Part shown: piece after piece, positions 10,127 to 62,026 of the stretch | Layout: the number at the start of each line of letters is the position of its first letter | Numbering within the stretch: position 1 is the first letter of the stretch | Assembly: GCA_965205265.1 (NCBI GenBank) | Contig: CBDBGH010000003.1 | Span: forward strand, 2,400,001-2,464,000 | DNA from: Alphaproteobacteria bacterium | GTDB lineage: Bacteria; Pseudomonadota; Alphaproteobacteria; Bin95 | DNA length: 64,000 bases | Reading direction: 5' to 3' | Notes under the pieces: model-generated | Database searches by the model: none | Seen by the model: the letters and a program-made list of their open reading frames with translations, nothing else | Told to the model about the DNA's origin: nothing | Program-made: the position numbers and the translations under genes

Positions 10127-10139
10127 GGGGACGCGGACC

Positions 10140-10400: not shown

Positions 10401-13348
10401 AGCGCCAGCCCTTCCGCGCGGCCGAGGGCGGTCATCTCATCGACCGCTCGGAACCGCTCAGATTCGACTTCGACGGCCACCGCCACGAGGGCTACCGGGG
10501 CGACAGCCTGGTCTCCGGCCTGCTGGCGGCGGGCGTGCGGATCGTGGCGCGGAGCTTCAAATACCACCGCCCGCGCGGCGTCTGGGGCTTCGGCCCGGAA
10601 GAGCCGAACGCCATGGTGACGACAGGCGTGCGCGGGGAGGCCCGGCCGAACCTGAAGGCGACCGAGGTCCCGCTCTCGGAGGGGCTGGAGGCCTTCGGGC
10701 AGAACGCCTGGCCCTCGGTTTCCTGGGACCTGGGCGGCGCGTTCGGCCTGGCCGGCGGGCTGATGCCGGCGGGCTTCTACTACAAGACTTTCATGGCGCC
10801 GGCGCGCTGGTGGCATGCGTTTTATGAGCCGCTGATCCGGCGCATGGCGGGCTTCGGGCCGGCGCCGCGCACACCGGATGACGCCTTCTACGCCAAGCGG
10901 CGCATCCACACCGACGTGCTGGTAGCGGGCGGCGGGCCGGCGGGCGTGGCGGCGGCGCTGGCGGCGGCGCGCGCCGGGGCCCGGGTGGTGCTCGCCGACG
11001 AGAATGTCCGCTTCGGCGGCGACCTGCTGCGCGCGCCCGGCGAGATCGGGGACAGCGACGGGCTTGCCTGGGTCGATGCCGCGACCGCCGAACTGGAGGC
11101 GATGAGTCATGTCCGCCTGCTGCGCCGCGCCACCGTCGCCGGCTATTACGACCACAACCTGCTGACGGTCGCCGAGCGGGCCGGACAGGAGGAGGGCGCG
11201 CCCGGCGCGCCGGCAATGCGGCTCTGGTTCGTGCGGGCCCGCGAGGTCGTGATTGCCGCCGGCGCGCATGAGCGTCCGCTGCTCTTCGACGGGAACGACC
11301 GGCCGGGCGTCATGTCGGCCTCAGCGGCCGGCGGCTATGCCCATGCCTATGGCGTGCTGGCCGGGCGGCAGGCTGTCGTCGCCGGCAACAATGACAGCAT
11401 CTACAGAGTGGCGCGGCTGTTGCGGAGCGCGGGCGTCGGCATCGCCGCCGTGGCCGACACCCGGTCCGGCGGCGATGTGCGCGACCTGCCCTGCCGCGCG
11501 GGCGAAGCTGTCGATCGGGTTCTGGGCAGCCGCCGGGTGCGCGGCGTCCTGCTCCGCCGGGCCGACGGCAGGGCCGGAGGCAAGGGCGAGCGAATCGCCT
11601 GCGACCTGGTGGCCGTTTCCGGCGGCTGGAGCCCGGCGGTGCATCTGCACGCCCAGGCGCGCGGCAGCTTCTGCTACGACGAGGAACGGGGATTGATCCT
11701 GCCCGACCGGCCGGGCGGCGCAAACCGGAGCGCGGGCGCAGCCGCCGGGCGTTTCGACCTCGACGGCTGTCTTGAAGAAGGCTGGGCCGCAGGCGCCGCC
11801 GCTGCGGCCTCCTCGGGGCACGAACGGGCCGCCGGCGAGCCGCCGCGCTCGCCCGACCGCAACGCCGGCGAGGCGCCCGTCTTCTGGCAGCCGGGCGGCG
11901 GCAAGCGCTTCGTCGATCTGCAATACGACGTAACCGCAGCGGATGTGGACCTCGCCGCCCGCGAGGGCTACCGCTCGGTCGAGCATGTGAAGCGCTATAC
12001 CGCGCTCGGCATGGGCACCGACCAGGGTAAGACCTCGGGCATGGCGGGCCTCGTTCTCCTCTCCGAAGCGCTCGGGCGGCCGGTGGCGCAAACCGGGACG
12101 ACGACCTTCCGCCCGCCCTATACGCCCGTACCGATAGCGGCCATGGCGTCGGGCCTCATCGGCGAGGGACGGGACGCGCTGCGCCGCACGGCGGCCGATG
12201 ACTGGCACGAGGCGCGCGGCGCTCCCTTCACCGCCGCCGGCCACTGGCGCCGGCCCCGCTATTATCCGCGCGAGGGCATGAGCGAGGAGGAAGCCATCGC
12301 CGCAGAAGTGCGCGAGACCCGCGCCGGCGTCGGCATCGTCGACGTCGGCACGCTCGGCAAGGTCGATATCCAGGGGCGGGACGCCGCGGCCTTCCTCGAC
12401 CTCGTTTATGCGAACCGGATGTCGAGCCTGAAGACGGGGCGCGGCCGCTACGGGCTGATGCTGCGCGAGGACGGGCGGGTATTCGACGACGGCGTCTGCA
12501 TGCGGCTTGGCGAAAACCACTTCTACCTGACGACTACGACCGCCCATCAGCACGAGGCGATGCAGCATATCGAACTGCTGCTTCAGACCGTCTGGCCGGA
12601 GCTGGAGGTCTATGCCACGGATGTCACCGAGCACTGGTTCGCGGCTGCGCTTGCCGGCCCCGGCTCGCGGGCGCTGCTGGAGCGGGCTGCGCCGGAGCTC
12701 GACCTTTCGGACGACGCCTTCCCGATGATGGCGGTGCGCGCGGCGACCGTCGCAGGCCTCTCGGCGCTCGTATTCCGGATGAGCTTCTCGGGCGAACTCT
12801 CCTATGAGATCGCCGTGCCCGCCGATCACGGGCTCGCGCTGTGGACGCGGCTCCTGACCGAGGGACGTGAGGACGGGCTCACGCCCTACGGCACCGAGGC
12901 GATGGGCGTCATGCGCATCGAGAAGGGCCATGTGACCCACGCCGAAGCGGATGGCCGCACGACGCCGGACGATCTGGGCCTCGGGCGCATGGTCAGGGCG
13001 GAAGGCCCCGGCATCGGCAAGCGCTCGCTCGACCTGCCCGCGCTCCGCCGGAACGGCCGCCAGCAGCTTGTCGGCCTCTCCGTCATCGACGCGCAAGCCC
13101 GCATCCCGCCCGGATGCCAGGTGGTGGAGAGCGACGACATGAAGCCCGCGCCGCCGCTCGGCCATGTCACCTCCTTCTGCTACAGCCCGACGCTCGGCCG
13201 GGCGCTGGCGCTCGCGCTGGTCGAGAACGGACGGGCGCGAACCGGCCAGACGGTCTATATCGCCTCGCCGGTCATCGACCTCTCCATGGCGGCGGAGATC
13301 GTCTCGCCGGTCTTCTACGACCCGCAAGGGACGCGGCTCAATGGCTGA
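10397..13348 (+). CDS. soxA: Sarcosine oxidase subunit alpha
   Basis: RSFKYHRPRG, AGFYYKTFM, KRYTALGMGTDQGKT, GcvT-like C-terminus. Confidence 0.92.
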   Translation: MKRQPFRAAEGGHLIDRSEPLRFDFDGHRHEGYRGDSLVSGLLAAGVRIVARSFKYHRPRGVWGFGPEEPNAMVTTGVRGEARPNLKATEVPLSEGLEAFGQNAWPSVSWDLGGAFGLAGGLMPAGFYYKTFMAPARWWHAFYEPLIRRMAGFGPAPRTPDDAFYAKRRIHTDVLVAGGGPAGVAAALAAARAGARVVLADENVRFGGDLLRAPGEIGDSDGLAWVDAATAELEAMSHVRLLRRATVAGYYDHNLLTVAERAGQEEGAPGAPAMRLWFVRAREVVIAAGAHERPLLFDGNDRPGVMSASAAGGYAHAYGVLAGRQAVVAGNNDSIYRVARLLRSAGVGIAAVADTRSGGDVRDLPCRAGEAVDRVLGSRRVRGVLLRRADGRAGGKGERIACDLVAVSGGWSPAVHLHAQARGSFCYDEERGLILPDRPGGANRSAGAAAGRFDLDGCLEEGWAAGAAAAASSGHERAAGEPPRSPDRNAGEAPVFWQPGGGKRFVDLQYDVTAADVDLAAREGYRSVEHVKRYTALGMGTDQGKTSGMAGLVLLSEALGRPVAQTGTTTFRPPYTPVPIAAMASGLIGEGRDALRRTAADDWHEARGAPFTAAGHWRRPRYYPREGMSEEEAIAAEVRETRAGVGIVDVGTLGKVDIQGRDAAAFLDLVYANRMSSLKTGRGRYGLMLREDGRVFDDGVCMRLGENHFYLTTTTAHQHEAMQHIELLLQTVWPELEVYATDVTEHWFAAALAGPGSRALLERAAPELDLSDDAFPMMAVRAATVAGLSALVFRMSFSGELSYEIAVPADHGLALWTRLLTEGREDGLTPYGTEAMGVMRIEKGHVTHAEADGRTTPDDLGLGRMVRAEGPGIGKRSLDLPALRRNGRQQLVGLSVIDAQARIPPGCQVVESDDMKPAPPLGHVTSFCYSPTLGRALALALVENGRARTGQTVYIASPVIDLSMAAEIVSPVFYDPQGTRLNG

Positions 13349-13946
13349 CGAACCCGCCGATATCCGGCGCAGCGCCCTTGCCGGGCTCGACCTCGGCTCG
13401 CGCGCCGGCGGGGCGGGCGGCGTGCTGCTGGCCGAGGGCGCGGCGCGCGAGGGTTTCGTGCTGCGCGGCCCGGCCGGCGACGCGGGGTTCGTGCAGGCCG
13501 TCGAGGCAGCTTTGGGAGCCGCCCTGCCGCTGGAGCCGGGCGAGGCGGCCGAGAACGGGGCCGGCGCCCTGCTCATCCGCCTCGGCCCGGACGAATGGCG
13601 GCTCATCGCGCCGCTCTCGGACGGTGGCCGGCTCGCGGCCCGCCTCGCCTCGGGGCTCGGCAGCGGTCCCGGCGCGCTGGTGAACGTCTCCTCCGCCGAG
13701 ACCGTCATCGCCGTCGCCGGCGAGCGGGCGGCGGACCTGCTGGCGACCGGCACCGGCATCGACCTCGACCCGGCTGCCTTCCCTCCGGGGCGGGCCGTCC
13801 GCACCCGCATCGGCAACGCCCAGGCGCTTGTCCACCGCAAGGCGGAGGATGCGTTCGACCTCCATGTCCCGCGCAGCTACGCCCGCTCCTTCTGGGAATG
13901 GCTGGAAGAGCGCGGCCGCGAGTTCGACGCCGCCGTCGCGCTGTGA
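13341..13946 (+). CDS. soxG: Sarcosine oxidase subunit gamma
   Basis: [25 protein letters not shown]; position in the operon. Confidence 0.88.
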
Positions 13947-13968
13947 CGCGGAAGGAAAGGAAAGCCTC

Positions 13969-14499
13969 GTGGCAGAAAGCATCCTCCGGGTCGAGCCGCT
14001 GACCCGCGTCGCGTTCGAGCCTTTCGGCGATGCGATCGAGGCGGACGGCGCACAGCATTTCAAGATCAACAACGGCTCGACGACCCGCTTCCACGACCTC
14101 GCCCGCGTCGATGTCGCGGCGGAAGGCGGGCATACGCTTGTCAACATCTTCCGCGCCCGTCCGCTGCCCATGCCGCTCACCATCGCCATGGTGGAGAAGC
14201 ACCCGCTCGGCTCGCAGGCTTTCGTCCCGCTGGAGGCCGCACCCTTCCTGGTGGTCGTCGCGCCGCCCGGAGACACCGTTAGGCCGGCAGACCTCCGCGC
14301 CTTCCTCGCGCGCGGCGGCCAGGGCGTCAACTACGCGCCCGGCGTCTGGCACCATCCCGTCATCGCGCTCGGCCGCGAAACCGACTTCCTCGTCATCGAC
14401 CGCGGCGGCCCCGGCGACAACCTCGCCGAGTTCTTCTTCGATGAGGGCGAACAGCGCGTCGTAGAGGTCATTCCACAGCCGGTGGCGGCAACGCCCTGA
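13969..14499 (+). CDS. allA: Ureidoglycolate lyase
   Basis: [45 protein letters not shown]. Confidence 0.9.
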
Positions 14500-16273
14500 G
14501 CGCCTCCAGAAACGCATCCCCGTAGCTGTGGAGCTTTGCGGCGCCGACGCCGGGGACTTCGGCCATCTCCTCCAGCGTGGCCGGGCGACGGTCCAGCATG
14601 GCGATGAGCACGCTGTCGTGGAACACGACATAGGGCGGCTTGCCCTGCGCCAGTTCCCGCCGGAGCGCGCGGAGCGCCTCGAAGCCTTTCCTGTCGCCTG
14701 ACGCGAGCGCGCGGGCTCCCTGTTCCTTTCGCTGCCGGGCCGGGCGGGGCTCCCGCTTCTCCAGCCGCAACTGCACCTTGCGCTCGCCGCGCAGCACGGC
14801 GCGCGCATCCGGCCCGAGGCGGAGCACGCTGAACCTGTCTAACGGTTCTGCGACCGCAAGCTCCGCCGCCATCAGTTGGCGGACGATCGAGCGCCATTCC
14901 GTCTCGCTGCGCGCCCTGCCGATGCCGAAGGTCGGCAGCCGGTCGTGCCGGAGCCTCTGGACCCGCTCGGTCTCGCGCCCAAGCAGCACATCGACGATAT
15001 GCCCGCCGCCGAAGCGCTGGCCCGTCCGGTAGATCGCGGAGAGCGCCATCTGCGCCGCCTCCGTGCCGTCGAAGGTCTCCGGCGGGTCGAGGCAGATATC
15101 GCAATTGCCGCAGGGCTCGCACTCGTCGCCGAAATAACCCAGCAGTATCTGCCGCCGGCAGGTCCCCGCCTCCGCATAGCCGACAATTGCGTCCAGCTTG
15201 GCCCGCTCGACGCGCTTCTGCTCGTCGGAGGCCTCCGACCCTTCGATGAAGCGCCTCAATTGCGCCGCATCGCCCGGGCCGTAGAGCATCCAGGCTTCCG
15301 CCGGCAGGCCGTCGCGCCCGGTTCGGCCCGTCTCCTGGTAATAGGCTTCGAGGCTCTTCGGCAGATCGAGATGGGCAACGAAGCGCACATCCGGCTTGTC
15401 GATGCCCATGCCGAAGGCGATCGTCGCCACCATCACCGCGTCATCCGAGGCGACGAAGCGGGTCTGCCGCTCCGTCCGCTCGGCGGCTTCCAGTCCGGCA
15501 TGGTAGGCGAGCGCCGGGACGCTGGCCCCGTTCAGCGCGGCAGCGACCTCCTCGACCCGCTTGCGCGTCATGCAATAGACGATGCCGGCCTCGCCCCGCC
15601 GTCCGGCGAGGAAGGCCAGCAATTGGCGGATGCGCTCGCGGCGCGGCTTGACCGTATAGCGGATGTTCGGCCGGTCGAAGCCGGAGACGAAACGCTGCGC
15701 CTCCTCCAGCCGGAGCTCGCGGGCGATGTCGGTGCGCGTCTCGGCGTCGGCCGTCGCCGTGAGCGCAATGCGGGGCACGCCCGGAAAGCGCTCTGCCAGC
15801 ACGGCGAGGCGCCGGTAGTCCGGGCGGAAATCGTGACCCCACTGGCTGACGCAATGCGCCTCGTCTATGGCGAACAGCGCGAGCGGCACCTTGTCGAGAA
15901 AGTCCAGGAAGCCCGGTGCGGCGAAGCGCTCCGGCGAAACATAGACGAGGTCGAGCCGGCCCTCGCGCATCGTCCGCTCGACCTGCCCGCGCTCCCGCCC
16001 GTCCAACGCCGAGTTGAGGGCGGCCGCGCGGACGCCGTTCTGGACGAGCGCAGCCACCTGGTCCTGCATCAGCGCGATCAGCGGCGAGACGACGACGGCC
16101 GCGCCCGGCCGGACCAGCGCCGGCACCTGGTAGCAAAGCGACTTGCCCGCGCCTGTCGGCATCAGCACCAGCGCGTCCTCGCCCTGGACCACCGCGTCGA
16201 TGGCCGCGCGCTGGTGGCCGCGGAACGCCTCGAAGCCGAAAACCCGCCGGAGAACCTCCAGCGGGTCCGGCAC
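14468..16273 (-). CDS. recQ: ATP-dependent DNA helicase RecQ
   Basis: [30 protein letters not shown] Cys cluster, HRDC C-terminus. Confidence 0.95.
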
Positions 16274-16299: not shown

Positions 16300-17004
16300 T
16301 CAGCCTTTCAGCGCCTTCTCGAACAACGCGGCCGTGCGCCCGTTGGCGAGCGCGGCGTTCTCCTCGTCATAGGGCTGGCCGCCGATGCGCGCGAAGGCGT
16401 GGTCCATGCCTGGATAGGAATGCACTTGCGTGTGGGCGTGGCCGGCAAGCCCTTCCCTGACCGCCGCCTGCGCCTCCTTCGGCACGAAGCCGTCCTCCTC
16501 CGCGATATGCAGCATCAGCGGGGCGGAGATGTTCGCCGCCTCGTCCAGCATCTCCTCGATGCCGACGCCGTAATAGCCGACATTGGCGTCGAGGTCCGCC
16601 CGGCAGGCCAGCATGTAGGCGAGCTTGCCGCCGAGGCAGAAGCCGACCGAGCCGATCTTGCCGGTGCAGCCCGCCATGGCGCGCATGTGAGCGGCCGTCG
16701 CCTTCAGGTCGTCGATGCCCTTGTCCACGTCGAAGCCCCCGTAAAGCTCGAACGCCTTCGCCCATTCCTCGTCGGTCCGGTCCGTGATATCGACACCCGG
16801 CTCCTGCCGCCAGAAGAGGTCGGGCGCCACGGCGATGTAGCCCTGGCCCGCCCAGTATTCGGCGATGTCGCGCATGGCGTGGTTCACACCGAAGACCTCC
16901 TGGATGCAAAGCACGCCGGGCCCGGAGCCCGAAGCCGGCATGGCGCAATAGGCGGTGAACTCTCCCGAGCCGTCGCTGGCCCGGATGGTGATGGTCTCGG
17001 CCAT
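16300..17004 (-). CDS. Dienelactone hydrolase family protein
   Basis: QEVFGVN, APDLFWR, GFCLGG nucleophile elbow, HAFAR. Confidence 0.92.
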   Translation of the reverse strand: MAETITIRASDGSGEFTAYCAMPASGSGPGVLCIQEVFGVNHAMRDIAEYWAGQGYIAVAPDLFWRQEPGVDITDRTDEEWAKAFELYGGFDVDKGIDDLKATAAHMRAMAGCTGKIGSVGFCLGGKLAYMLACRADLDANVGYYGVGIEEMLDEAANISAPLMLHIAEEDGFVPKEAQAAVREGLAGHAHTQVHSYPGMDHAFARIGGQPYDEENAALANGRTAALFEKALKG

Positions 17005-17239
17005 GTCCGGCCTCCCTCTCGAACTGCCGGGCCCGCCCGCCGGGCCCATGAACCGGTGCCGGCCGGCACTCTCCCAAGGGCTGCCGGACCGCATCCTCTC
17101 CGCCACCATAGCCGCGCGCTCCGCCGCCGCACAAGCCAAGCGGCGGCGGAAGCCGGGCCGCACACCTGCCGGGAGTGTCATGAAGGCAAATCATGCACTT
17201 TAAGCATCGTATCGATAGCAATTTCGGTATCATGCCGGA

Positions 17240-18271
17240 ATGGTGGAGATGTTCTCTAAACGCGCGAGTTCCCGCTCGCTCGCGAACCTTGCCCCGGGCG
17301 AGGTAAAGTCCGTGGTCGAGGGATACAACGCGATTTACGACGCCGGCGAGCAGGGCAGGAGAGAGCAATACCGCTCGCTCGTAAATCACTACTATGACCT
17401 GGTTACCGACTTCTACGAGTTCGGCTGGGGCCAGTCTTTCCACTTCGCGCCCCGGCGGCGCGGCGAGAGCTTCAAGGCGTCGCTGCTCAGGCACCAGCAT
17501 TTTCTCGCCGACCGGCTGGCCCTGAAGCCGGGGATGCAAGTGCTCGATGTAGGATGCGGGGTCGGCGGGCCGATGGGCAACCTGGCGCGCTATGCCGGCG
17601 CCGGCTTTGTCGGCATCAACAACAATACCTACCAGATCGAACGCGCGAAACATCATACCCGGGATGTGCGCTCGTTGTGCCGCTTCATCCACGGCGACTA
17701 CATGCGGATTCCCGAAGGCGACGATCGCTACGATGCCGCGTTCGCCATCGAGTCCATGCCCCACGCGCCGGACAAGACGGGGGCGTTCCGCGAAATCCTG
17801 CGCGTCCTGCGCCCGGGCGCCTGTTTTGCGGGTTACGAGTGGTGCCTCACCGATGATTTCGACCCCGCAAACGCGGAGCACCAGTGGATCAAGAACGAAA
17901 TCATGGTGGGGGATGCGCTACCGGAGATCGCGTCCATGCCGGAGATTTGCGACGCCTTGCGCACGGCCGGGTTCGAGCTTCTGGAAGCCGGGGACCGCGC
18001 GCCCGAATCGGATCCCGGGACGCCATGGTACCGCGCCCTGCAGGGCCGCGACCTCACTCTTTCGAGCATTCCGCGCACGCCTTTCGGTCGGGCTCTCACC
18101 AATCTGACGCTGCGGGCGGGGGAGAGGCTGCGGCTGTTCCCGAAAGGCTCCCGCGCAGTCAGCACGCTGCTGAACGCGGCGGCGGATGCGCTGGTCGAAG
18201 GCGGCAGGACGGGCATCTTCACGCCGATGTATTTCTTCCTGGCCCGCAAGCCTCAGCGCCCCGGCGGCTGA
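17240..18271 (+). CDS. Sterol C-24 methyltransferase (Erg6/SMT family)
   Basis: YYDLVTDFYEFGWGQSFHFA (SMT region I), LDVGCGVGGP (SAM binding), IESMPHAP, YEWC and C-terminal GIFTPMYFFLARKP. Confidence 0.9.
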   Translation: MVEMFSKRASSRSLANLAPGEVKSVVEGYNAIYDAGEQGRREQYRSLVNHYYDLVTDFYEFGWGQSFHFAPRRRGESFKASLLRHQHFLADRLALKPGMQVLDVGCGVGGPMGNLARYAGAGFVGINNNTYQIERAKHHTRDVRSLCRFIHGDYMRIPEGDDRYDAAFAIESMPHAPDKTGAFREILRVLRPGACFAGYEWCLTDDFDPANAEHQWIKNEIMVGDALPEIASMPEICDALRTAGFELLEAGDRAPESDPGTPWYRALQGRDLTLSSIPRTPFGRALTNLTLRAGERLRLFPKGSRAVSTLLNAAADALVEGGRTGIFTPMYFFLARKPQRPGG

Positions 18272-21105
18272 ACGCGGCGCGTCCCCGGCCGCAGGGCCAC
18301 CGGCGCTCAGGAAAGGGAACGGGCGGAAACCGCCTCCGGCAAGGGCGGCGCCGACCCGCCGGTGCAGGCAGCAGGAGCGGCGAGGTCCACCCGGTTCCGG
18401 CGGCGGCGCTCATAGAGGCCGAGCGCGTGCAGCGGGAAATACTGCCGGTAGAGCACGTAATCCAGAAGCGCCGTGCGGAAGAACACGCCGGCCATGTCCT
18501 GTTTGGGCCATGCCCCTTCGCCGTCCTGCGTGTCGAGCAGGAACCGGGCGCCCCGCGAAATCGCGGTCCAGTCCGGGTCTCCCGCCTCGAGGAGCGCGAT
18601 CAGGGCCCAGGCGGTCTGGATGACCTGGCTCTCCTCGTGCGGGACATAGCGGCCGGTCAGGCAGCCGCTGTGGTGCTCGCCCCATCCTCCGTCTTCACGC
18701 TGGCGCTCCAGCAGCCAGCGGCAGGCCGAACGCAGCGCGGGATCGCCGGGACGGGCCCCGGCGGCAAGCAGGCCCCTGATGCCGAACAGGGTGCCGTAGA
18801 TGAACTGGACGCCCCATACGCCGCGCCATGACCCATCGATCTCCTGGGCCCGGCGCAAACAGGTCTCGGCCCTCGAAACGGCCTCCGTCACCGCCCCATC
18901 CGCAATTTCGGGAAACCGCTCCCTGCAGGCGGCCAGCGCGGCGAGGCAGGAAGCGGTGCACTCCACGAAGGAATGCTCGGTCATCGAATCGCCGAACATC
19001 TCGGCCGGATTCAACCATTCCAGACCGAAAACCGAACGCTGCGCCTCATAGCTGCCGAATCCGCCGTCGCGGTTCTGGCCGCGCAGCATGAAGGCGACCG
19101 CATCGCCGAGCGCCGCCCAGTCCGCACCGCCGGCCGCGATGAGTCCGAGCACCGCTTCCGCCGTGCAGTCGCTCACCGGCCAGCCATGCCAGCCGCCCGC
19201 AAAGCACCAGCCGCCTCTGGGGTCGGTCCGGTAGGCCTCGCGAAACCCCTCGAAGCTCCTATCGATCTGCTCACCCAGCAGGAAACCGGCGCCGCGCCCG
19301 AGCGCCTCCTCGATCCCGGCGGGTTCGGGCAGCGCCGCCAGCGCCTGCAGCGCGAACCCCGTGTCCCAGGAGGCGCTTCTCGCGCCGGTGACGCGCGCGC
19401 CTTCGTCCTCGTCTTCCCAGATCCACCCGTCCAGCTGCTCGAGTGCCTGCTCGCAATCGGCATCATCCGGATCGTGCAGCCATAGCGCCAGAATGTTGAG
19501 GAGGCCGCTGACCGGGGAGATGCTCGTGTGGCTGGTGGTTTGCAGTTCCCATTTGATGCGCCCGACAAGCGCCTCCGTGCATCTTGCGCGAAGGCGCCTG
19601 GCGTGGAACCGCTCGAACAGCCGCGCCAGCCCGTATCCGGCCCTGAGCCAGAGGCTCGGCCACCGATAGAGGTCGGCCACCCGCAGGCGATTTCGGGCGG
19701 CAGAGAAATCGACACTGGCAAAGCCTTGCGGGAACAGCTCCTCCCGCAGCGACTCGGTCAGTGGCGTAACGGGCGCCTGGAACCGGCGCGCGTAAATCGC
19801 CGCCATCGCCATGTAGATGAGCCGGGTATGGCAGTACCAGTTCGAGGGGTGCAGCGGCAACCGGCGCGGCAGACTCCAGAGTTCCGGCAGAACCGCGTTC
19901 ACCCCGCGCCAGTCATAGAGGTTGAGGAGCGCCAGCCAGAATTTTCCCCAGCTCGGAATGCCCAGAACCCCTTCGGCCTGAAGGAACCGCCGGGCCGGCT
20001 CGACCAGGGGATCGTCCCGCCCGACGCCCAGCAATCTCGCCGCGACATAGACGAGCGCGGTGACGAACAGGTGGGGCGGCGAGTGCTCGTGCAGGCCCCA
20101 TGCGCCGCCTTCGAGACGGGTCCGCTCGAAGGAGCGCAGCACGCGCCGGCGGCGGCCCGGTTCCAGCGGCCGTCCGACAATGTGATGCAGCAGCGCATAT
20201 TGCGCGGTGAGCATGGGGCACCAGACCATCTCGCCTTCCCAGGCGCCGTCCTCTCTCTGGAGGCTCAGCAGGCGCGCGGCCGCGCTTTTCAACGCCGGCC
20301 CGGCATCGGGCGGTTCGACCTCCCTTGAGCGCGCGGGCCTGGAGGGTTCGCCCCCGGAAGGCATGGAGTACAGGAAGGCGCGGGCAAGGGCGTCGCGGGT
20401 TTGCCTGTTTTCTTCCCGGCCCTCGCGACTCGCCTTCCGCAACTGCCGAACGCCGCGCTGGAGCCACCAGATGCGAACGGCGAGCGCACTGAAGACGGCC
20501 CGCGCCCGATGCGAGGCGAAGCGGCGGAACGAGAACGGATTCTCCCGGGTCAACGCCCGGGTCACCGTGCCGCAAAATGCGAGTGTCATGCCGATCGCGG
20601 ACCGGTCCTCGCAGGCGAGTATCCGCGTGGTCCGGTCGCGGTAGGCCGAATTCGCCCGCCAGCCTCGGTAGATCGCGGATCTGAGGGCCATCGACTCGAT
20701 GCGGTAATCGGCGAAGACCTCATAGAGCCCCATTGCCAGGAACTCGGGAATACGGGTCGCCCGGAAGCGTTCGGCGGTGAAGTCCCGGAAGCGCTCGTTC
20801 TCGGCGAGCGTCAGCGCATCGCCGAAACCGAGCGTCATGCCGACCGCCGTCATGGGATGGTAGTGCCCGGCCGCGTCGCCGATCAGCACCCGGCGCGGGC
20901 TGCCGTACGTGACGCGCGGCCTCAGCCGATTGGCCGCCGCATGGAATTGGCCCGCCCGCAGCGCCTCGACGAAGGCCGGCCCGAGAGCCCCCGGCAGCAG
21001 CCCGGCACAGGATTCCGACAGGAAGGCGACCCGGTCCCGGGGCGTCCAGCGGTCCAGCGGCAGATCGACGATGATCCGGACGCAACCGCCCGCCAGACCG
21101 TATAT

Positions 21106-21223
21106 GAGGATCGGACCGGGCCCGCCCAGCACCACATGCCCGTAGCCTTCGAAGGGCAGGTCCGCCCCGCCTATCGTCACTCCCAGCATCCGCGAGCAGA
21201 GCATCGGGTCCGTGGAGAGCCCC
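21106..21223 (+). repeat. Left copy of the 118-bp target-site duplication
   Basis: gaggatcggaccgggccc...gtggagagcccc, identical by eye to 23138-23255. Confidence 0.92.
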
Positions 21224-23137
21224 CTGACTTCGACGGTTGATTCGCATAAGTAGTTGATATTGCCTGGTTCTCATTTCGGCTAGGCACTACATCCGGCATT
21301 TCTTCGAGCCGTGCTTCGTCGACGGTCAGGCGAGTTGATACGGGGTGATCGTCAGGGGCAGCCCCATGGTTGCGTAAATCTGCTCCGCCGCCGGTGTCGG
21401 CTTCGAGGGGATGACGTAGCGGTTGCCCGATTGCCGACAGCGCAGCAGGGAGCACTGGCGGTGGACGAGGGCGGAGCGGATGACCTCCGGGGACATCCGC
21501 CGCTTCTGGATGGCGACGCGGTACGCAAGGTGTCGAACGCAGGCGAAGGCCAGGAAGGCGATGGCGATGTGAGCGCGGATCCGGTCCGGGTTCCAGTGCC
21601 AGATGGGACGTATCTTCAGGTCGTGTTTGGTGATCCGGAAGCTCTCCTCGACCTGCCAGAGCCCCTGGTAGTGAGCCATCACTTCGGTGACGCGCGCGTC
21701 GCGCAGATTGGTGATGACGCCGGTGAGCCCGTCCCATCGTGCGGCCTCGGCGATCTTCTCCGGGTTCACCGTGAGCCGTGCGTCGCCCTCGACGGCGATG
21801 AAGCGCTTCGCCCCGTGATTGGAGAGCAGTTCCCTGGGATTGTCGCTGCGGGCCAGCCTGTCGAGCAGGCGTTCCACCTGATGGCGGCGCTCGTGCGCGT
21901 CCTTGCGTGCGCGCTGGGGGCAGAAGACGACGATCAGGCGACGGCCCTTGTACTCCCACTCGCCGACCCGGCGGTCCTGTGAGCCCTCCAGCGGGGCATA
22001 GGTCCCGGGGTCGAGAACCTGCCCCAGCAGCGCGAGCGGCAGCTTGCGCAGCCGCGCGCCGACGACATACTCGCCGCCGATGGCGTCCATGGCGTCGAGG
22101 TTGTCGGCGCTCAGCATGCCCCGGTCGGCCACGCATACCGTGCGCTCCACCTGGTGGCGGCGCTGCATGTCCTGCAGGACCGGGACCATGCTGTGTCCCT
22201 CGTAGGTGGCGCCGGGGAAGACCTCGTAGCTGATCGGCAGCCCTTCGCGCGTCACCATCAGCGCCAGCAGAACCTGCGAGTCCTTGTGTTTGCCGTCCTT
22301 GCTGAAGCCGTGCTGGCGAAGCTCGTCCTCGGCGGCCGTCTCGAAGTAGAGCGTGGTGCAATCGAAGAAGAGGATCGCGACCGGCTCCGGCAGCAGCGAC
22401 CGGCTCGCCTCGCCGACGCGCGTGCGCAGTCGCTCGATCACCGTCGCGTCGAGCTGATCCATCATCCGGTAGACCTTCTCGAGCGGAAGACTCACGCCGA
22501 AGTCCTCCTCGAGCCGGCGCACGCTGCCCCGCTTGCTGTCGGGGTTGGCTACCCGCGCCATCACCACATGGAACAGCGCGTCATGGGAGGCCCGGTAGCG
22601 CGAGCGCGGCAGCAGCGCGTCGAGGCCCAGCAGCCGGTAGATCTCGCCATAGACCTCGTGGATGCCTGTGATCAGGCGCTGCTCCTCTTCAAGCTGCTTG
22701 AGGTCGACCGGGAGTTCCTCCTTGCCGTCCCCCCGGCGGCCGACACGGATCGCCTGCTCAGCGATCTTCTCGGGCGCAAACAATGCCGGCTGACGCTCGT
22801 CCTCCAGCTTCGCCTTGACGTACTCGCCGAGCTGCCTCAGGCGCTCGAGCTCGTCCTCGTCCATGGCCACGCCGACATGGCGGACGATGCGCTGTCGGAC
22901 CTTGCCGCCGTCGCGCACGGCCTCGACGATCTGGACCGAGCGTCGCGGGCTGTTGGGGGAGGTCTTGATGCGCACGAACATGGGGGGAGTGTAGCGCGTG
23001 GCGGAGGCATTGACAGTCTCAAAGATTTACTAGGCACTACAACGCAGCTTGACCGCACCGCAACTGCCAACTCATTGGCTTTACTGAAAACTCCAGACGC
23101 GAGATCGGTCAGAAGTCAGCCCAACCGTCGAAGTCAG
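21224..23137 (-). mobile_element. IS1634-family insertion sequence (~1914 bp)
   Basis: 16-bp perfect terminal IRs ctgacttcgacggttg / caaccgtcgaagtcag, a single transposase and long flanking direct repeats; each boundary is ambiguous by 1 bp. Confidence 0.9.
21326..22981 (-). CDS. IS1634-family DDE transposase
   Basis: FFDCTTLYFE, GFSKDGK, VADRGM, YQGLWQVEESFRITK, IRAHIAIAFLA. Confidence 0.92.
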   Translation of the reverse strand: MFVRIKTSPNSPRRSVQIVEAVRDGGKVRQRIVRHVGVAMDEDELERLRQLGEYVKAKLEDERQPALFAPEKIAEQAIRVGRRGDGKEELPVDLKQLEEEQRLITGIHEVYGEIYRLLGLDALLPRSRYRASHDALFHVVMARVANPDSKRGSVRRLEEDFGVSLPLEKVYRMMDQLDATVIERLRTRVGEASRSLLPEPVAILFFDCTTLYFETAAEDELRQHGFSKDGKHKDSQVLLALMVTREGLPISYEVFPGATYEGHSMVPVLQDMQRRHQVERTVCVADRGMLSADNLDAMDAIGGEYVVGARLRKLPLALLGQVLDPGTYAPLEGSQDRRVGEWEYKGRRLIVVFCPQRARKDAHERRHQVERLLDRLARSDNPRELLSNHGAKRFIAVEGDARLTVNPEKIAEAARWDGLTGVITNLRDARVTEVMAHYQGLWQVEESFRITKHDLKIRPIWHWNPDRIRAHIAIAFLAFACVRHLAYRVAIQKRRMSPEVIRSALVHRQCSLLRCRQSGNRYVIPSKPTPAAEQIYATMGLPLTITPYQLA

Positions 23138-23255
23138 GAGGATCGGACCGGGCCCGCCCAGCACCACATGCCCGTAGCCTTCGAAGGGCAGGTCCGCCCC
23201 GCCTATCGTCACTCCCAGCATCCGCGAGCAGAGCATCGGGTCCGTGGAGAGCCCC
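23138..23255 (+). repeat. Right copy of the 118-bp target-site duplication
   Basis: Matches 21106-21223; both copies encode MLCSRMLGVTIGGADLPFEGYGHVVLGGPGPIL on the minus strand. Confidence 0.92.
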
Positions 23256-23754
23256 AGCGACCGGCGCACGATCGAGGCCCGGCCGTCGGCGCCGACGATG
23301 CGCGCGGCGGTTACGGCGCGCTCGTCGCCGCCTACGGAAAAGGCGACCTGCCCGTCATCGACCGCCTTGACCCGTGCGTGGGAAATGAAATCGACACCGG
23401 CCTCCTCCTCGATCGCTTCGCGGAGGCTCGAGACAAGCAAGGCGTGGTCGCACGCCAGACCGCGGGACCCGTCCGGGTAAGGAAGCAGGATCGGCTCCGA
23501 GCCGTCCTCCGGAAACACCGCGAATCCGTTGCCCGGGGTGCTGCGGGGCAGCGCGTCGATGTCTATCCCGACCTCGCGCAATATCCTGACGGCCGGCGGA
23601 TGCAGCCATTCGCCGGCCAGGCGCCCCGACGCCCTGGGATTGGCTTCCAGCAGGGCCACGCGGGCGCCCCGGCGCGCATGGGCGAGCGCGCACAGGCTCC
23701 CCACCGGGCCCGCGCCGACAATGGCTACGTCGTAAGGCCGCCCCGCGGCGGCGC

Positions 23755-25164
23755 TCATCGGAAAACGCTCGGCTCCGCGCGGCGGCGGTAGCGGACCCGG
23801 CACGGGGCCTCGGGCCCCGTCACCCAGCTGCCGTAATTCGGGCGCGGGAACCTCGAGTCGGCAGTGAAGTCGAAGCGGTCGAGCAGAACCGTCCAGATCG
23901 CCTTGAGCTGCATATAGGCGAAGTTCTTGCCCATGCATGCATGTTTGCCGCCGCCGAAGCCGATCAGGGCGTAATGGTGCTGCCTGTCCTCGCTGGCGGG
24001 GGGCGCGAAACGGTCGGGGAAGAACCGCTCCGGGTCGGCGAAGACATGGGGCAGGCGGTGGGAGACCGCCGGCGACACCATGGCCATGGTGCCGGCAGGC
24101 ACGACACTGCCCCTGTAGCGGAGCGGTTCGAGCACCTTCCGGATCAGCAATATCAGCGGCGGGTGCAACCGCTCGCATTCTCGCACGGCGTTTTCCATCG
24201 CCGGCTGGCGCTGGAGGCTGTCGAGGCTTATGGACCCCGCTTCGCGGTAAACCTCCCGCATCTCCTCCCTCAATCGCGCCAGGTAGGAGGGCGCCCTGAA
24301 GAGCTCAAGGCCGGTCCAGGTCGCAAGCACCGCGCTGGTGTGCTGGCCCGCGAACAGCACCGTCAGCAGAATCCCCGTGATCTCGTCGTCGCTGAGAGCG
24401 CGGCCATCCTTGTAACGGGCATTCATGAGCGTCTGCATGAAGTCGTCGGGGCCGCCCCCTGCATGGCGGCGCGCCGCCATGATCCCGCCGAAGATCTCCG
24501 CCACCTTCCGCCGGGCCCGGTCACGGCTTCTGTGCGCGGGGGTGGGAAGTCTCGGAAGGAAGAACCCGAGCGTGTTAATACCCTTCTGCAGGTCGTGGTA
24601 GGCCTCGGCGAATCCGGTGTCCACCCGGTCGCGGACCTCCTGCCCGATCAGGCAGCGGCTGGCGATCCTGACGGTGAGCTCGTTCATCGCATGCGGCAGG
24701 TCGATGTTCCCCTCCTCGCCGAGGGCGTCGGCGAAAGCGCTCGCCTCCTCGAACATGATGAGGGCGAATTTCCGCATGGCGGCCTCGCGGAGCGCGGGAA
24801 ACAGGAATCCCAGCTGCTCCGCCATGATTTCCGGCGAGGTGTCATAGGCCACGCCGCGCCCGAAGACGGGCACGGTGAAGCGGTAGACCGCCTTGGCGTT
24901 CAGCTGGGTCTCCGGCGCCCTGAAATAGAAGTCGTGGGCTTCGGGCCCGGCGAAGAGGACGAAATCGCGGACACCCAGCCTGAAGCGGAAGAGGTCGCCA
25001 TGCTCGCGCCAGCCGCGGCTCAGCATGGCGACCGGGTCCCGCTGGAATTCCCTGAGATGGCCGATCAGCGGCCAGCTGCCCGCCAGTTCCGGAACGGGCT
25101 CTTCCGGCCGCGGCGGGGGGTCCGCGGCATGCAGGGTCGCCATGCTGTGAGACCGGTTCGCCAT
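23755..25164 (-). CDS. cyp51: Cytochrome P450 CYP51 (sterol 14-alpha-demethylase)
   Basis: YRFTVPVFGRGVAYD, I-helix LFAGQHTS, ExxR (ECER), heme motif FGGGKHACMG; stop overlaps the ATG of the SE-OSC gene. Confidence 0.9.
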   Translation of the reverse strand: MANRSHSMATLHAADPPPRPEEPVPELAGSWPLIGHLREFQRDPVAMLSRGWREHGDLFRFRLGVRDFVLFAGPEAHDFYFRAPETQLNAKAVYRFTVPVFGRGVAYDTSPEIMAEQLGFLFPALREAAMRKFALIMFEEASAFADALGEEGNIDLPHAMNELTVRIASRCLIGQEVRDRVDTGFAEAYHDLQKGINTLGFFLPRLPTPAHRSRDRARRKVAEIFGGIMAARRHAGGGPDDFMQTLMNARYKDGRALSDDEITGILLTVLFAGQHTSAVLATWTGLELFRAPSYLARLREEMREVYREAGSISLDSLQRQPAMENAVRECERLHPPLILLIRKVLEPLRYRGSVVPAGTMAMVSPAVSHRLPHVFADPERFFPDRFAPPASEDRQHHYALIGFGGGKHACMGKNFAYMQLKAIWTVLLDRFDFTADSRFPRPNYGSWVTGPEAPCRVRYRRRAEPSVFR

Positions 25165-25172
25165 CCCCGCCC

Positions 25173-26273
25173 TCAATGGATGAACGGCAGCATCGAGAAA
25201 CGCGCCTGCTGCGTGTAGCGTTCCCACAGCTCGCCGTATTTGGCCCGGCAGCGGCGCTCGTCGCGTATCGAGCGGTGCCACAGGAGACCCGCCAGCCATG
25301 CCGGCAGCAGGTAGGGGACCCAGGATGCGAACCCGGTCGTCAGCGCGAAAGCGAGATAGATGCAGATCTCGCCGGTATAGTTGAGATGCCGCCCGATTCC
25401 CCAGAATCCGGAGACCAGGAGTCGCCCGTCCAGGGTCCGGGCGGGCTGCCCCCAGATCGTGACATCGGGGTCGCGCTTGAAGCCGTGCTTCTGCTGGTTT
25501 GCTCCGCGGAAGAGCCAGAAGCCGAAGGCGAACAACAGGACGACGGCCATGGCGGCGGCCGGAGACAGCGGGTCCGGCGCGTGAACCAGCCACCAGCCGG
25601 GCAGGCAATAGAAGAACGGCACCAGCACATAGTCGCCCCAGACCAGCATCCATCCGAAGCGCTCGCTGATGATGTCCCAAGTGTGGATCATGCCGTGCTC
25701 GAACTGGAAGTAGTTGAGCACGTAGAGGAAGGTGAACGCCTGATAGAGCGCCATCGCCAGGGTAAGCTCGCCATAGGTTTCCCACTGCACGACGGCGAAG
25801 GAGGCGTTGAAGAGCGCCAGGCCGATGAGGGAGGGGCGGTAGCTGAACAGCTTCAGGTCCAGCCCGAACCGGACCGGGCCGGCATCGACGCCGCCGAAAT
25901 AGCCCCGCCAGAATCCCGGCGGAGCGCCGGGCGCCCGCGCGCCCCGCAGATACAGCCAGCCCGCAAGCGCGAAGGCGAAGGCGTTCGCCGCCACGAACAG
26001 GGCGGCGAAGTGGGTGTAAAGCGCCGAAAGGGAGAACCAGCCGAAGAACTGGGCGAGGCCCGCCGCGAACGCGGCGATCAGGAAAAGCGCGAGGCCGTTC
26101 AGCTTGTAGATGCGCTCATTGCCCTCGGCGTCCGGCCCCGCGATGCGGCGGCCGGGAAGGACAATCGAACCCAGGAAGAGCAGCGCGACGAACACCAGCG
26201 CCATTGCCGCCGCTTCGAGCAACGCCCCGCCCGACAGCGCGGACGACAGGGGGGACGCTTCAGGCAGGGACAC
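25173..26273 (-). CDS. ERG24/ERG4/DHCR7-family sterol reductase (probably C-14 reductase)
   Basis: YKLNGL, WDIISERFGWMLVWGD, LLVSGFWGIGRHLNYTGE, RDERRCRAKYG; GTG start at 26273 is inferred. Confidence 0.88.
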   Translation of the reverse strand: MSLPEASPLSSALSGGALLEAAAMALVFVALLFLGSIVLPGRRIAGPDAEGNERIYKLNGLALFLIAAFAAGLAQFFGWFSLSALYTHFAALFVAANAFAFALAGWLYLRGARAPGAPPGFWRGYFGGVDAGPVRFGLDLKLFSYRPSLIGLALFNASFAVVQWETYGELTLAMALYQAFTFLYVLNYFQFEHGMIHTWDIISERFGWMLVWGDYVLVPFFYCLPGWWLVHAPDPLSPAAAMAVVLLFAFGFWLFRGANQQKHGFKRDPDVTIWGQPARTLDGRLLVSGFWGIGRHLNYTGEICIYLAFALTTGFASWVPYLLPAWLAGLLWHRSIRDERRCRAKYGELWERYTQQARFSMLPFIH

Positions 26274-27345
26274 CGCCGTCCCCCGACCCGCGGGCCAGAG
26301 TTTCCCGCCATTTGCGCACCGTGACTTCCTGAAAGGCCTTGACCACCGGATTGAACTCGACGGGCCGCGCGTCCCAGTGTTTCTCGTAACCCTCCTGTTC
26401 CGCTTCGAGCGCAAACCGGTCCTGGTCGAGCAGGGGGGCGATGAGCGCGCGGTTGGAGATTTTCATCACCGCAGTCATGGCGAAACGCGGAATGCGCACC
26501 GGCAGGAACGGTATTTTCAGAGACTTGAAATAGAACAGGAAGAACACCCGGGTGGTGCGTTCGTCCATGGGCAGCACGAACAGCCAGTGCTTGATCTCGT
26601 CATCGGTGTTCGACCACTGGTAGGGATATTCGTAGCAGAGCTCCATACGGTTGGTGTTGAGCCGCTCATGGTCCACGAACAGCCCCGAGATGCGCCCGCG
26701 CCCGACGCGCGTGTCATAGGCGAGATGCACATTGTCGCCGACGGTTTCGCAGGAGGCGAGCTCGGCTCCGTCGAAGGGCCGGTAGCGGCGGTGCAGATGC
26801 GCATGGGTGAAGTCGCTCACATTGTCGATCACCATCGAGTGGTGCGCCGCCCATGTGAAGCGCAGCGGCACGCAGGTCCAGCGGCCGGGCCCCTCCAGCT
26901 CGGGAATCTCCGGGATCCCGCGCTGCTCCGCCTGCTCCGGGTCGCCCGGGAAGAGCCAGACCAAGCCGTAGCGGACCTTCACCGGATAGGTCTTGAGCGC
27001 AAGCCGCGGGAAGCTTCGCCCGTTGCCGTCATAAGGGACCCCGGCAGGACGCTCCCTGCCGCCATATTCCCAGCCGTGATAGGCGCACACCAGCCGGCAT
27101 CCCTCCACATGACCGATGGAGAGCTTGAGCTGGCGGTGCGCGCAGCGGTTCTCGATCGCCTGGAAAGAACCGTCCGTTCCCCGGAACAGCGCAATCGAGT
27201 GCTTCCAGAAAACGACCTCGACCACCGTTCCCGGCTTGACCCGGCGCACTTCCTCCACCGCATACCAGTAATTCGGGTCCATGCCCGCGGCGCGCGCCTG
27301 CTGGCGGAGCGTGCCGGCCTCCTCGAAGCAGGGCGGCGGCCTCAT
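26260..27345 (-). CDS. Rieske non-heme iron oxygenase, SdmA-like sterol C-4 methyl oxidase
   Basis: CAHR...CAYHGW Rieske motif and DNVSDFTHAHLH mononuclear iron motif; sterol operon context. Confidence 0.75.
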   Translation of the reverse strand: MRPPPCFEEAGTLRQQARAAGMDPNYWYAVEEVRRVKPGTVVEVVFWKHSIALFRGTDGSFQAIENRCAHRQLKLSIGHVEGCRLVCAYHGWEYGGRERPAGVPYDGNGRSFPRLALKTYPVKVRYGLVWLFPGDPEQAEQRGIPEIPELEGPGRWTCVPLRFTWAAHHSMVIDNVSDFTHAHLHRRYRPFDGAELASCETVGDNVHLAYDTRVGRGRISGLFVDHERLNTNRMELCYEYPYQWSNTDDEIKHWLFVLPMDERTTRVFFLFYFKSLKIPFLPVRIPRFAMTAVMKISNRALIAPLLDQDRFALEAEQEGYEKHWDARPVEFNPVVKAFQEVTVRKWRETLARGSGDGGVPA

Positions 27346-28502
27346 GTCGCGCTCCCGCCCGGCATCGCCTGGAGGCCCGGGTGCGGCGCGGGATTTTCCG
27401 CCCCTCCCGCGGCGCGCTGATCCGGGACGTCGGCGCGCGGCGGTTTTGCGGACGGATTCACGATTGCGTTGCGGGCGAAGTGAAATGCGTAGGCTTCATG
27501 AACCGCGTCGCGGATGCCGGTCGGCCGGTAGCCGAGCTCGCGTTGCGCCTTGCCGGTGTCGGCATGGCGGCGCTTTTTCAGCAGGCGGATGGCGCCGGGC
27601 GTGAAGCGCTGGGGAAAGTCCGGATGGAACCGGCTCAGGTAAGAGCTCGCCACTTCCGAAAAGGCGAGCATCAGGGGGGCGGGAATCCGCCGGCGCGGCC
27701 TCGGGACGCCCGAGACCTCCTCATACAGACCCACGATCTCCGAGATGGTCTTGTACTCGCTGCTGAAGATGTATTTTTCGCCCGAGCGGCCGCGGCGCAT
27801 GCACAGCAGGTGCCCCTCGACAATGTCGCGCGCCGCGACGAACTCGAACCCGCCGTCGATATAGGCATGAAGCTTGCCATTGGTGTAGTCGCAGAGCGTC
27901 CTTCCCAGCCGCGAGGGCAGATAGTCGGCGCCTCCCACCACTGCGCAACAGGTCGCGACCACGACATCCTGCCCTGTGGCCGCCGCGCGCCAGCATTCCT
28001 GCTCGACCAGCGACTTGCTGCGCTCATAGGGCATCGTGCGTTCCATGGGATAGAACGGCATTGTCTCGTCGCTGGGCGCGGACGGATCGTCCAGATCGTA
28101 GCCGACCGCGCTGAAGGAGCCGGTCACGACCACACGGCCGGCCTCGGCTTCCCGCGCCGCCTGCAGCACGTTGCGGGTGCCGCGAACATTGCACTCGAAC
28201 ACCTCCCGGCGATGGGCCCGGTTGCCCTCGATGGTCGATATCTTGGCCGCGACATGATAGACGCCCCGGCAGCCGGCGAGCGCCTGCCTCGTGGCATTCA
28301 AATCCCGGATGTCGCCGAACACGCGCTCCACATCGAGGCCTTCCAGCCCCTCATTGTTGTCCTCGCACCTCAGCAACACCCGGACCCGCACGCCGTCGCC
28401 GAGCAACCGGCGCACGAGATTGGCGCCGACATGCCCGGCCGAACCGGTAACGAAAACGGGCGGCGTCGGCGAACCCGCCGGCATGCTCGATGGAGACGTC
28501 AT
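27342..28502 (-). CDS. NAD(P)-dependent extended SDR (3-beta-HSD-like), SdmB-like C-4 decarboxylase/reductase
   Basis: VTGSAGHVG and YERSK catalytic motif; stop overlaps the Rieske gene start. Confidence 0.72.
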   Translation of the reverse strand: MTSPSSMPAGSPTPPVFVTGSAGHVGANLVRRLLGDGVRVRVLLRCEDNNEGLEGLDVERVFGDIRDLNATRQALAGCRGVYHVAAKISTIEGNRAHRREVFECNVRGTRNVLQAAREAEAGRVVVTGSFSAVGYDLDDPSAPSDETMPFYPMERTMPYERSKSLVEQECWRAAATGQDVVVATCCAVVGGADYLPSRLGRTLCDYTNGKLHAYIDGGFEFVAARDIVEGHLLCMRRGRSGEKYIFSSEYKTISEIVGLYEEVSGVPRPRRRIPAPLMLAFSEVASSYLSRFHPDFPQRFTPGAIRLLKKRRHADTGKAQRELGYRPTGIRDAVHEAYAFHFARNAIVNPSAKPPRADVPDQRAAGGAENPAPHPGLQAMPGGSAT

Positions 28503-29121
28503 CGTAGCCGCTTTCCGCTAAAGGGAGCGGGGAGCCAATCCAGTTCCGTGAGATGGGGACAAAGTCTTGCCGACAACACCGTTCACTCACCGGCCGGCAT
28601 CGCAACGGCAGGTGCATTGAAGCGAATCCACGCCTGTTTGCGCCATGAGATATCGCAAATTCTTCATGCCTGTGCCTCCATCTCCGGGAAGGCTGCGGTA
28701 CCGGCGGGCCGGCATGAAACCGAACGGCATAGAGGGTATACAAAAAGGCTTATTTGTCAAATACAACACGCCCGTAGCGCTCTCGCTTCGTCCGGAAAGC
28801 GAATGCCCCACCCGGGAAAAAGACCCCTTGCGTCATCCCGGTTTTCTTCCGCCCCGGTGACGCCGCAGCCGGTGGAGAGGAGGCCGAAGCGGCGAGGTCG
28901 TCATGGCAGGCCGAAGACTTCGACCGCAGCCATGACGGCTCCGGCACTCGAGCCAAGAAGGGAACCTCTGTTGGACCGGTTGGACAAGACCGAATTTTCT
29001 TCTTTATTTTCAACGCCTCGGTTCGAGACGGTTGGACACTTTATGTCCTTGACCTTACTGCAAAAATAGATTTCCGTTGGGGTCACCACGCGGCACAGTC
29101 CCCGCCAGGAGGCGCAACCCC

Positions 29122-29343
29122 ATGTCCGAGCGGACCCTGTCCATCGAATATTGCGTGGCTTGAAACTACGAGCCGCGCGCCCTCCGTGCGAGGGACATCC
29201 TGCAGGCGAATACCGGCCTTGCCGTGAACCTGGTCAAGGGCGGCGGCGGCGTCTTCGAAATCCGGCGGGACGGCGAGATGCTGTTCTCCAAGAAGGCGAC
29301 GGGGCGCTTCCCGACCGACGAGGAATTGCACGCGCTGCAATAG
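29122..29343 (+). CDS. Rdx-family (SelW/SelT/SelH-like) selenoprotein with in-frame UGA (CxxU)
   Basis: MSERTLSIEYCVA-TGA(29161-29163)-NYEPRA...GGGGVFEIRRDGEMLFSKKATGRFPT; AGGAGG RBS; missing from the ORF track. Confidence 0.88.
29164..29196 (+). promoter_or_regulatory. Candidate bacterial SECIS hairpin
   Basis: ccctc-cgtgc-gaggg stem-loop (29180-29194) beginning 16 nt after the UGA, with G in the loop. Confidence 0.5.
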
Positions 29344-61993: not shown

Positions 61994-62026
61994 ATATGCT
62001 GGCGATAACATAGGCCGCCCGCCGCC

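Follow-up and report, generated by a model that had tools for sequence, protein, structure and literature searches.

A sterol operon of the msb/CSG type with an IS-split epoxidase/cyclase gene in a Defluviicoccus-like alphaproteobacterium

The window, a 64,000-nucleotide stretch of DNA (G000:C3:2400001-2464000), comes from a genome of 5.70 Mb in 3 contigs with ~68% G+C and carries a six-gene sterol operon of the kind known as msb or cluster of steroid genes (CSG), as circulates among sponge-associated bacteria, here placed in a Defluviicoccus-like chromosome. The fused squalene epoxidase/oxidosqualene cyclase gene of the operon (SE-OSC) is split by an insertion sequence (IS) of the IS1634 family, and it is with good confidence that we read the locus as an operon of this type in which de novo sterol synthesis has most likely been abolished. 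The operon type is known and widely spread, and the window holds another, recently inactivated copy.

All six sterol-pathway genes are confirmed within positions 17240-28502. The arrangement described in an earlier sequence-only reading of this DNA, with five coupled genes on the minus strand converging on a sterol methyltransferase (SMT) gene, is borne out by Pfam domains, by ATGA overlaps and by a 35-nt stop spacing. The features are as follows.

17240-18271, plus strand: SMT, predicted ERG6/SMT-type sterol C-24 methyltransferase, intact; 343 aa; Sterol_MT_C and Methyltransf_11 domains
18307-21223, minus strand: 3' part of SE-OSC, holding the entire cyclase domain, preceded by a linker and the C-terminal half of the epoxidase domain; SE, SQHop_cyclase_N and SQHop_cyclase_C domains
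21106-21223, no strand: target-site duplication, copy 1; 118 bp, abuts the IS and matches 23138-23255 with 100% identity
21224-23137, minus strand: IS1634-family IS, 1,914 bp; transposase gene at 21326-22981 (minus strand), 551 aa
23138-23255, no strand: target-site duplication, copy 2; 118 bp
23138-23758, minus strand: 5' part of SE-OSC with the FAD-binding epoxidase domain; 207 codons; FAD_binding_3 domain
23755-25164, minus strand: CYP51, putative sterol 14-alpha-demethylase; 469 aa; PDB matches
25173-26204, minus strand: ERG24-like, putative delta-14 sterol reductase; ~343 aa; PF01222 and PDB 4quv
26260-27345, minus strand: SdmA-like Rieske oxygenase, putative C-4 demethylation; 361 aa; Rieske and VanA_C domains, NCBIfam SdmA
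27342-28502, minus strand: SdmB-like NAD(P) short-chain dehydrogenase/reductase (SDR), putative C-4 demethylation; 386 aa; Epimerase and 3Beta_HSD domains, NCBIfam SdmB

The minus-strand sterol genes are translationally coupled, with an ATGA stop-start overlap at SdmB/SdmA and another at CYP51/SE-OSC and a gap of 8 nt from ERG24 to CYP51. The stop codons of the convergent SMT and SE-OSC genes lie 35 nt apart.

Insertion in the fused epoxidase/cyclase gene

The IS sits within SE-OSC after codon 207 (codon 207/208) and not between genes, where the sequence-only reading had placed it. The transposase matches the NCBIfam model transpos_IS1634 (NF033559) with 341.3 bits compared with a cut-off of 100, the ends of the element form 16-bp perfect terminal inverted repeats, and a perfect 118-bp direct repeat flanks the whole. 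The genome contains 53 exactly identical copies of the IS, all on the large contig and all with matches spanning positions 1-1914 exactly. Target duplications of the IS1634 family are long and variable in length, and the 118-bp duplication is normal for this element, since 22 of the 53 copies lie between perfect repeats 35-575 bp long; a further 30 lack such repeats, and the remaining copy has one of 3 bp.

Removal in silico of the IS and of one repeat copy gives a single frame of 1,139 aa spanning the epoxidase and cyclase domains, and residues 1-1131 of this repaired frame align continuously with single genes at five loci of the same genus at 85-91% identity. In the interrupted gene, the 5' fragment covers 207 epoxidase residues and 18 IS codons and then ends in a stop. 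The epoxidase is thus cut within the flavin-binding fold, after residue 207 of ~400, and its Pfam matches SE (PF08491, 65.7 bits) and FAD_binding_3 (PF01494) are found on the two separate fragments. In the 3' fragment an ATG at 21204 opens a frame of 965 aa (18307-21204) that holds the entire cyclase domain. The other five genes (CYP51, ERG24, SdmA, SdmB and SMT) are all full-length, and the insertion is recent, as indicated by this intactness together with the perfect duplication and the identity of the 53 copies.

The expansion of this IS1634-family element in G000:C3 has the appearance of a very recent burst. A relative of the IS is present in a metagenome contig of run X7, which covers window positions 21331-23139 with 180 differences in 1,809 bases (~90% identity).

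Assignment of the enzymes and the predicted pathway

The cyclase domain is assigned to the oxidosqualene type and not to the squalene-hopene cyclases. It scores 739 bits with the NCBIfam 2,3-oxidosqualene cyclase model TIGR03463 (cut-off 851) compared with 265 bits for hopene cyclase (TIGR01507), and in the PDB it matches human lanosterol synthase (1w6k) at E 1e-133 compared with 2.7e-52 for squalene-hopene cyclase (1gsz). A hallmark of oxidosqualene cyclases is the catalytic Asp within a VxDCTAE-type motif, and the window sequence VSDCTAE aligns to the human catalytic motif. The alignment to 1w6k places Val at the position of human V453, His at 449 and Ala beside a gap at 381. In Wei 2016, Val at 453 went with lanosterol and Ile with cycloartenol among the bacteria tested. 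Lanosterol is therefore the predicted product of the cyclase when the gene is intact, based on the Val at the human-453 position, and with His at 449 and Ala at 381 this product call depends on a single residue.

The epoxidase domain of an intact gene from the same genus matches human squalene monooxygenase (6c6n) at E 7.2e-25, with the next PDB match at 2.3e-07. The fusion is the common form among close relatives of the protein. The best 120 database relatives of the 3' fragment (120/120) are proteins of 1098-1184 aa with both SE and cyclase domains, the named ones among them being called 'FAD-dependent monooxygenase', 'FAD-dependent oxidoreductase' or 'hypothetical protein'.

The p450 domain of CYP51 (Pfam, 198.8 bits) lies inside the open frame 23755-25785(-). 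All of the top 56 PDB sequences belong to CYP51, ranging from E 3.8e-105 (6mcw, the top match) to 2.8e-57, and the first non-CYP51 match occurs at E 1.4e-38. The translation also contains stretches that we take to be CYP51 signatures.

The ERG24-like protein matches ERG4_ERG24 (PF01222) with 226.7 bits in the open frame 25173-26414(-), and its start was set at the first ATG past the Rieske gene, giving ~343 aa. With PDB 4quv, a Delta(14)-sterol reductase, matched at E 1.6e-65, it appears closest to a characterised delta-14 reductase, and the position reduced (C-14, C-7 or C-24) is putative. A second, divergent and solitary gene of the ERG4/ERG24 family is located ~614 kb away (G000:C3:3038614-3039663), is ~30% identical to that of the cluster and may provide an extra sterol reductase step. 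In two relatives this second gene adjoins SMT (L032, 17527-18582; L125, ~7566).

The SdmA-like Rieske oxygenase matches the NCBIfam model SdmA (NF052579, 4beta-methylsterol monooxygenase) with 399.9 bits (cut-off 600) over 338 of the 351 profile positions, the next family scoring 34.9. The SdmB-like protein scores 285.7 bits with SdmB (NF052578, cut-off 600), followed by HpnA with 234.8; its gene overlaps that of the SdmA-like protein, an arrangement also seen for msbA and msbB of the msb locus discussed below. The SMT contains Sterol_MT_C (PF08498, 81.5 bits compared with a cut-off of 21.7) and Methyltransf_11 (PF08241, 62.3 bits) and has all 45 columns that are invariant in 18 bacterial SMT relatives. 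Relatives at least 75% identical to it make up more than 120 protein clusters. In the PDB the SMT matches generic methyltransferases only, with MitM the best at 1.8e-18, and in NCBIfam, which has no SMT model, every match falls far under its cut-off. By its domains it is considered to be of the ERG6/SMT type, with C-24 methylation as the predicted activity.

In an intact operon of this kind, squalene would be supplied by a squalene synthase (SQS)-like gene located elsewhere in the genome, the N-terminal flavin domain of SE-OSC would epoxidise it, and the C-terminal domain would cyclise the epoxide, with lanosterol as the predicted product. CYP51 would then remove the 14-alpha methyl group, the ERG24-like reductase would saturate the delta-14 bond, SdmA together with SdmB would remove one or both C-4 methyl groups, and the convergent SMT would methylate C-24. 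The SQS-like gene is on G000:C3 at ~688 kb; its best NCBIfam match is squalene synthase, and its best PDB matches are farnesyltransferase/squalene synthase entries. The sequence-only reading had expected 14- and 4-demethylated, 24-alkylated sterols to be made de novo from the cluster. The enzymology it proposed is reasonable; the first two committed steps appear lost to the IS1634-family element, which has transposed into SE-OSC at codon 207/208 and duplicated the 118-bp target.

Known systems and spread of the cassette

The closest described system is msbA-F, a locus found in a gammaproteobacterium living in symbiosis with the sponge Melophlus sarasinorum (Mohanty 2020, PMC7074536). By its published description, msbA-F agrees with the window in gene content and gene order across all six genes: overlapping NAD(P) oxidoreductase and Rieske oxygenase genes, a membrane sterol reductase, a lanosterol demethylase, msbE as a bifunctional squalene epoxidase/sterol cyclase in which the diagnostic valine is present, and a SAM-dependent sterol methyltransferase. 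A squalene synthase is encoded elsewhere in that genome as well, like the SQS-like gene of the window genome. The two differ in the host, here a Defluviicoccus-like alphaproteobacterium, and in the splitting of SE-OSC by the IS1634-family element. The architecture, for which the sequence-only reading could not say whether it was already known, has accordingly been reported before, bifunctional enzyme included, and the idea of the SE-OSC fusion as an unreported feature was dropped, since PMC7074536 already calls msbE bifunctional. Word searches found no mention of an SE-OSC fusion in PMC12324236, PMC9531527, PMC8237579 or PMC10070321.

Kelly 2022 (PMC9531527) describes CSGs in 115 of 537 metagenome-assembled genomes (MAGs) from the sponge Ircinia, spread over 10 phyla and with Alphaproteobacteria among the 11 classes, and argues for purifying selection and horizontal transfer. 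In that description CSGs share with the window an ERG24-CYP51-LSS core, a same-strand 'dihydroflavonol-4-reductase' (an SDR) and a hypothetical protein ahead of it, and an opposite-strand SMT at the 3' end. The main text does not contain the words 'fusion', 'fused' or 'transposase', has 'squalene' in the reference list only, and leaves SdmA and SdmB unannotated. Whereas CSGs are reported there to be under purifying selection, the copy in the window has only recently been disrupted.

Brown 2023 (PMC10070321) assayed 24 metagenomic SMTs and showed in vitro that bacterial SMTs belonging to clusters of this kind can attach between one and three carbons at C-24. The clusters described there share with the window an SMT alongside sdmA, sdmB and an oxidosqualene cyclase. 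Metagenome loci carrying the cassette include contigs from the Aplysina aerophoba metagenome used in that study, JGIcombinedJ30088_10005958 and _10000241, with SMTs 92% and 75% identical to that of the window; the sole contig named in the main text is _10000835.

A more distant comparison is offered by Methylococcus capsulatus, whose CYP51 (6mcw) is the best PDB match of the window CYP51 and whose SdmA and SdmB give the top-scoring NCBIfam families for the two C-4 genes. The window CYP51 lacks the fused ferredoxin domain (469 aa compared with 551 in Methylococcus 6mcw), and the window SdmA and SdmB scores lie under the equivalog cut-offs of the NCBIfam models tied to the Methylococcus pathway. 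Methylococcus is not known to possess an SMT or an epoxidase/cyclase fusion.

Records of MAGs from the genus of the window genome carry the titles Alphaproteobacteria bacterium and Defluviicoccus sp., in agreement with the alphaproteobacterial background given in the sequence-only reading. No paper on sterol genes in the Defluviicoccus genus was found in a limited literature collection; one that matched deals with hopanoids and another, by its title, with a coral holobiont. Sterol_MT_C occurs in 11 of the 16 representative species of the genus; all 20 representatives of two further genera in the family are without a match, as are all 24 from other families of the class. The SE-OSC query matches 9 of the 16 congeners and none of the remaining 7. 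Open frames at the SE-OSC position are 1234-1494 aa in seven congeners compared with 987 aa in the window genome. Five of the six congener loci fetched, one of them cut by a contig end, reproduce the six-gene content and order of the operon.

The sixth congener locus (genome G008; L034, G008:C1:2335000-2354500, ~5600-15800) is an eroded cluster. ERG24 is gone, P450 is represented by two C-terminal fragments, one of them in frame with a GPP34-like domain, and SMT is reduced to a 59-residue remnant, with SdmB, SdmA and the fused SE-OSC whole. The same cluster contains a gene for an MMPL-family transporter with a weak sterol-sensing-domain match. In another congener, G012 (5 contigs, completeness 100), there are three Sterol_MT_C matches and the SE-OSC query is without a match.

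The metagenome loci of at least 5 kb (31 of 80 fetched) contain the complete cassette in 3 of 31 cases, with two more cut by contig ends. Among species-representative genomes at least 494 stretches encode an SMT relative, and with the 115 of 537 sponge MAGs in 10 phyla cited above (PMC9531527) the view that bacterial SMTs are known mainly from a few lineages no longer stands. The synteny search in MAGs that had been suggested along with that view recovers the cassette in the congeners and, with all six genes and a single-piece fusion, in 17 of 80 species-representative loci, all of which are in records titled as MAGs. By the records' own labels these 17 are Alphaproteobacteria, Defluviicoccus, Rhodospirillaceae, Opitutales, Rhodothermales, Bryobacterales, Arenicellales, Gammaproteobacteria, Chloroflexi/Chloroflexota and Ca. 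Versatilivorator, and several of the cassettes are on contigs of 0.3-2.7 Mb. The recurrence of the same order in 5/6 congener, 3/31 metagenome and 17/80 species-representative loci means that the six-gene arrangement is not due to chance. Distant loci, labelled myxobacteria and others, have epoxidase and cyclase as separate genes. In three loci (L045, L047 and L132) SMT lies downstream of SE-OSC on the same strand, with ~70-79% identity, and two of the three are sponge-metagenome contigs.

Bacterial 24-alkyl sterols affect the reading of sterane biomarkers, a point already made by published work on the same operon. What the window adds is a near-complete genome context in a Defluviicoccus-like genus, with an SMT-type gene in the 11 of 16 species representatives, and a clean knock-out, arisen naturally, of the two committed steps that open the pathway. 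Surveys of gene presence would score this genome as a sterol producer despite the split epoxidase/cyclase.

Effect of the insertion and alternative explanations

De novo sterol synthesis is probably off in the window genome, since SE-OSC is split and no second Pfam SE-type epoxidase or triterpene cyclase was found. The cluster can accordingly no longer be called intact, as the sequence-only reading had it. In the family searches of the genome the sole cyclase match (PF13243) and the sole SE match (PF08491) are both SE-OSC itself, in a search that did not include non-flavoprotein epoxidases, and this limit is one of several points that weigh against the reading of the locus given here. Read-through could possibly give a cyclase-only product, because the transposase is co-oriented with the operon and the ATG at 21204 opens the 965-aa frame. 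The scores for SdmA (399.9/600), SdmB (285.7/600) and the oxidosqualene cyclase (739/851) are all under the NCBIfam curated cut-offs, and the human-381 equivalent, Ala next to a gap, is neither Thr nor Tyr, leaving one of the three classical positions lanosterol-like. Run X1, used below, is possibly the assembly data of the genome and hence not independent support. Finally, a minority of uninterrupted cells is possible, roughly up to a tenth as judged by junction compared with flank depth, because the 118-bp repeat exceeds the 31-letter words in length.

One alternative is that only de novo synthesis has been lost and that the five intact genes still work, tailoring sterols or protosterols acquired from a eukaryotic host or neighbouring bacteria. 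The full length of CYP51, ERG24, SdmA, SdmB and SMT fits such a role, as do the complete congener G012, with its SMT-type matches and no SE-OSC match, and the presence, in runs labelled as sponge metagenomes, of loci closely related to this one. However, the insertion is apparently too recent for gene intactness to signal selection, no system for sterol uptake came to light at the locus, and expression of the four upstream genes, which may retain their promoter, is a possibility only. The tailoring role is therefore considered unlikely as the present state of the locus. A wider and tentative proposal, which may well not hold, is that the operon has been caught at the moment of loss, the IS burst (53 copies) having just knocked out the sole epoxidase/cyclase and left the five tailoring genes whole, with de novo synthesis repeatedly dispensable in the genus and the tailoring of external sterols perhaps outliving it. 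This proposal draws on the eroded cluster of G008, on the 7 of 16 congeners unmatched by the SE-OSC query and on G012, which keeps only SMT-type genes. The genus shows repeated erosion of the operon.

A second alternative retains a working pathway in the population, either because only part of the cells carry the insertion or because the SE fragments complement each other. The contigs of run X1, compared by depth, bear on its first form. X1 contigs cover the region without differences, with a depth of 1743 for the IS and ~20-30 for the flanks. The contigs at the IS junctions have depths of 19.3 and 28, about those of the adjoining flanks (20.2 and 30.6), and the 118-bp repeat has a depth of 49.2, ~2x single copy. 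These depths fit an insertion in most or all cells. No X1 contig joins over the IS, which is uninformative as the repeat exceeds the 31-letter words and an empty site yields no new word, so that the weight falls on the depths; a minority empty-site allele would be compatible with the contigs. Contigs of runs X5 and X7, the latter a sponge metagenome, join 21105 to 23138 with ~1.5-5% differences, so that relatives do carry the uninterrupted allele as DNA. For the second form, the 965-aa frame with its complete cyclase domain is still open, whereas the epoxidase is cut inside its flavin-binding fold. Taken with the junction depths, which are close to those of the flanks, this makes a working pathway in the population decidedly improbable.

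That mis-assembly of the 53-copy repeat placed the IS here, with the real gene intact, is very unlikely: identical high-copy repeats commonly cause mis-joins, but the perfect 118-bp target duplication is a signature of transposition, inside the 35-575-bp range of 21 other copies, and short X1 contigs bridge both junctions at single-copy depth, though X1 is possibly the assembly data. The reading of a known operon type with a recently split SE-OSC, and with de novo synthesis most likely lost, is thus preferred.

In RNA runs X19 and X20 the shares are small (0.17 and 0.07). A promoter and terminator scan of 16900-29300 gave 1 promoter-like and 8 terminator-like sites compared with 1.3 and 7.6 in shuffles and is uninformative. 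The cluster is flanked on both sides by unrelated housekeeping genes, on one side sarcosine oxidase, ureidoglycolate lyase, RecQ and dienelactone hydrolase and on the other a DegP-like protease, MgsA and CrcB. The G+C content is 65-69% over window positions 16-30 kb compared with 70-74% on both sides. Further along the window, at 60001-62000, G+C falls to 58% compared with ~70% around it.

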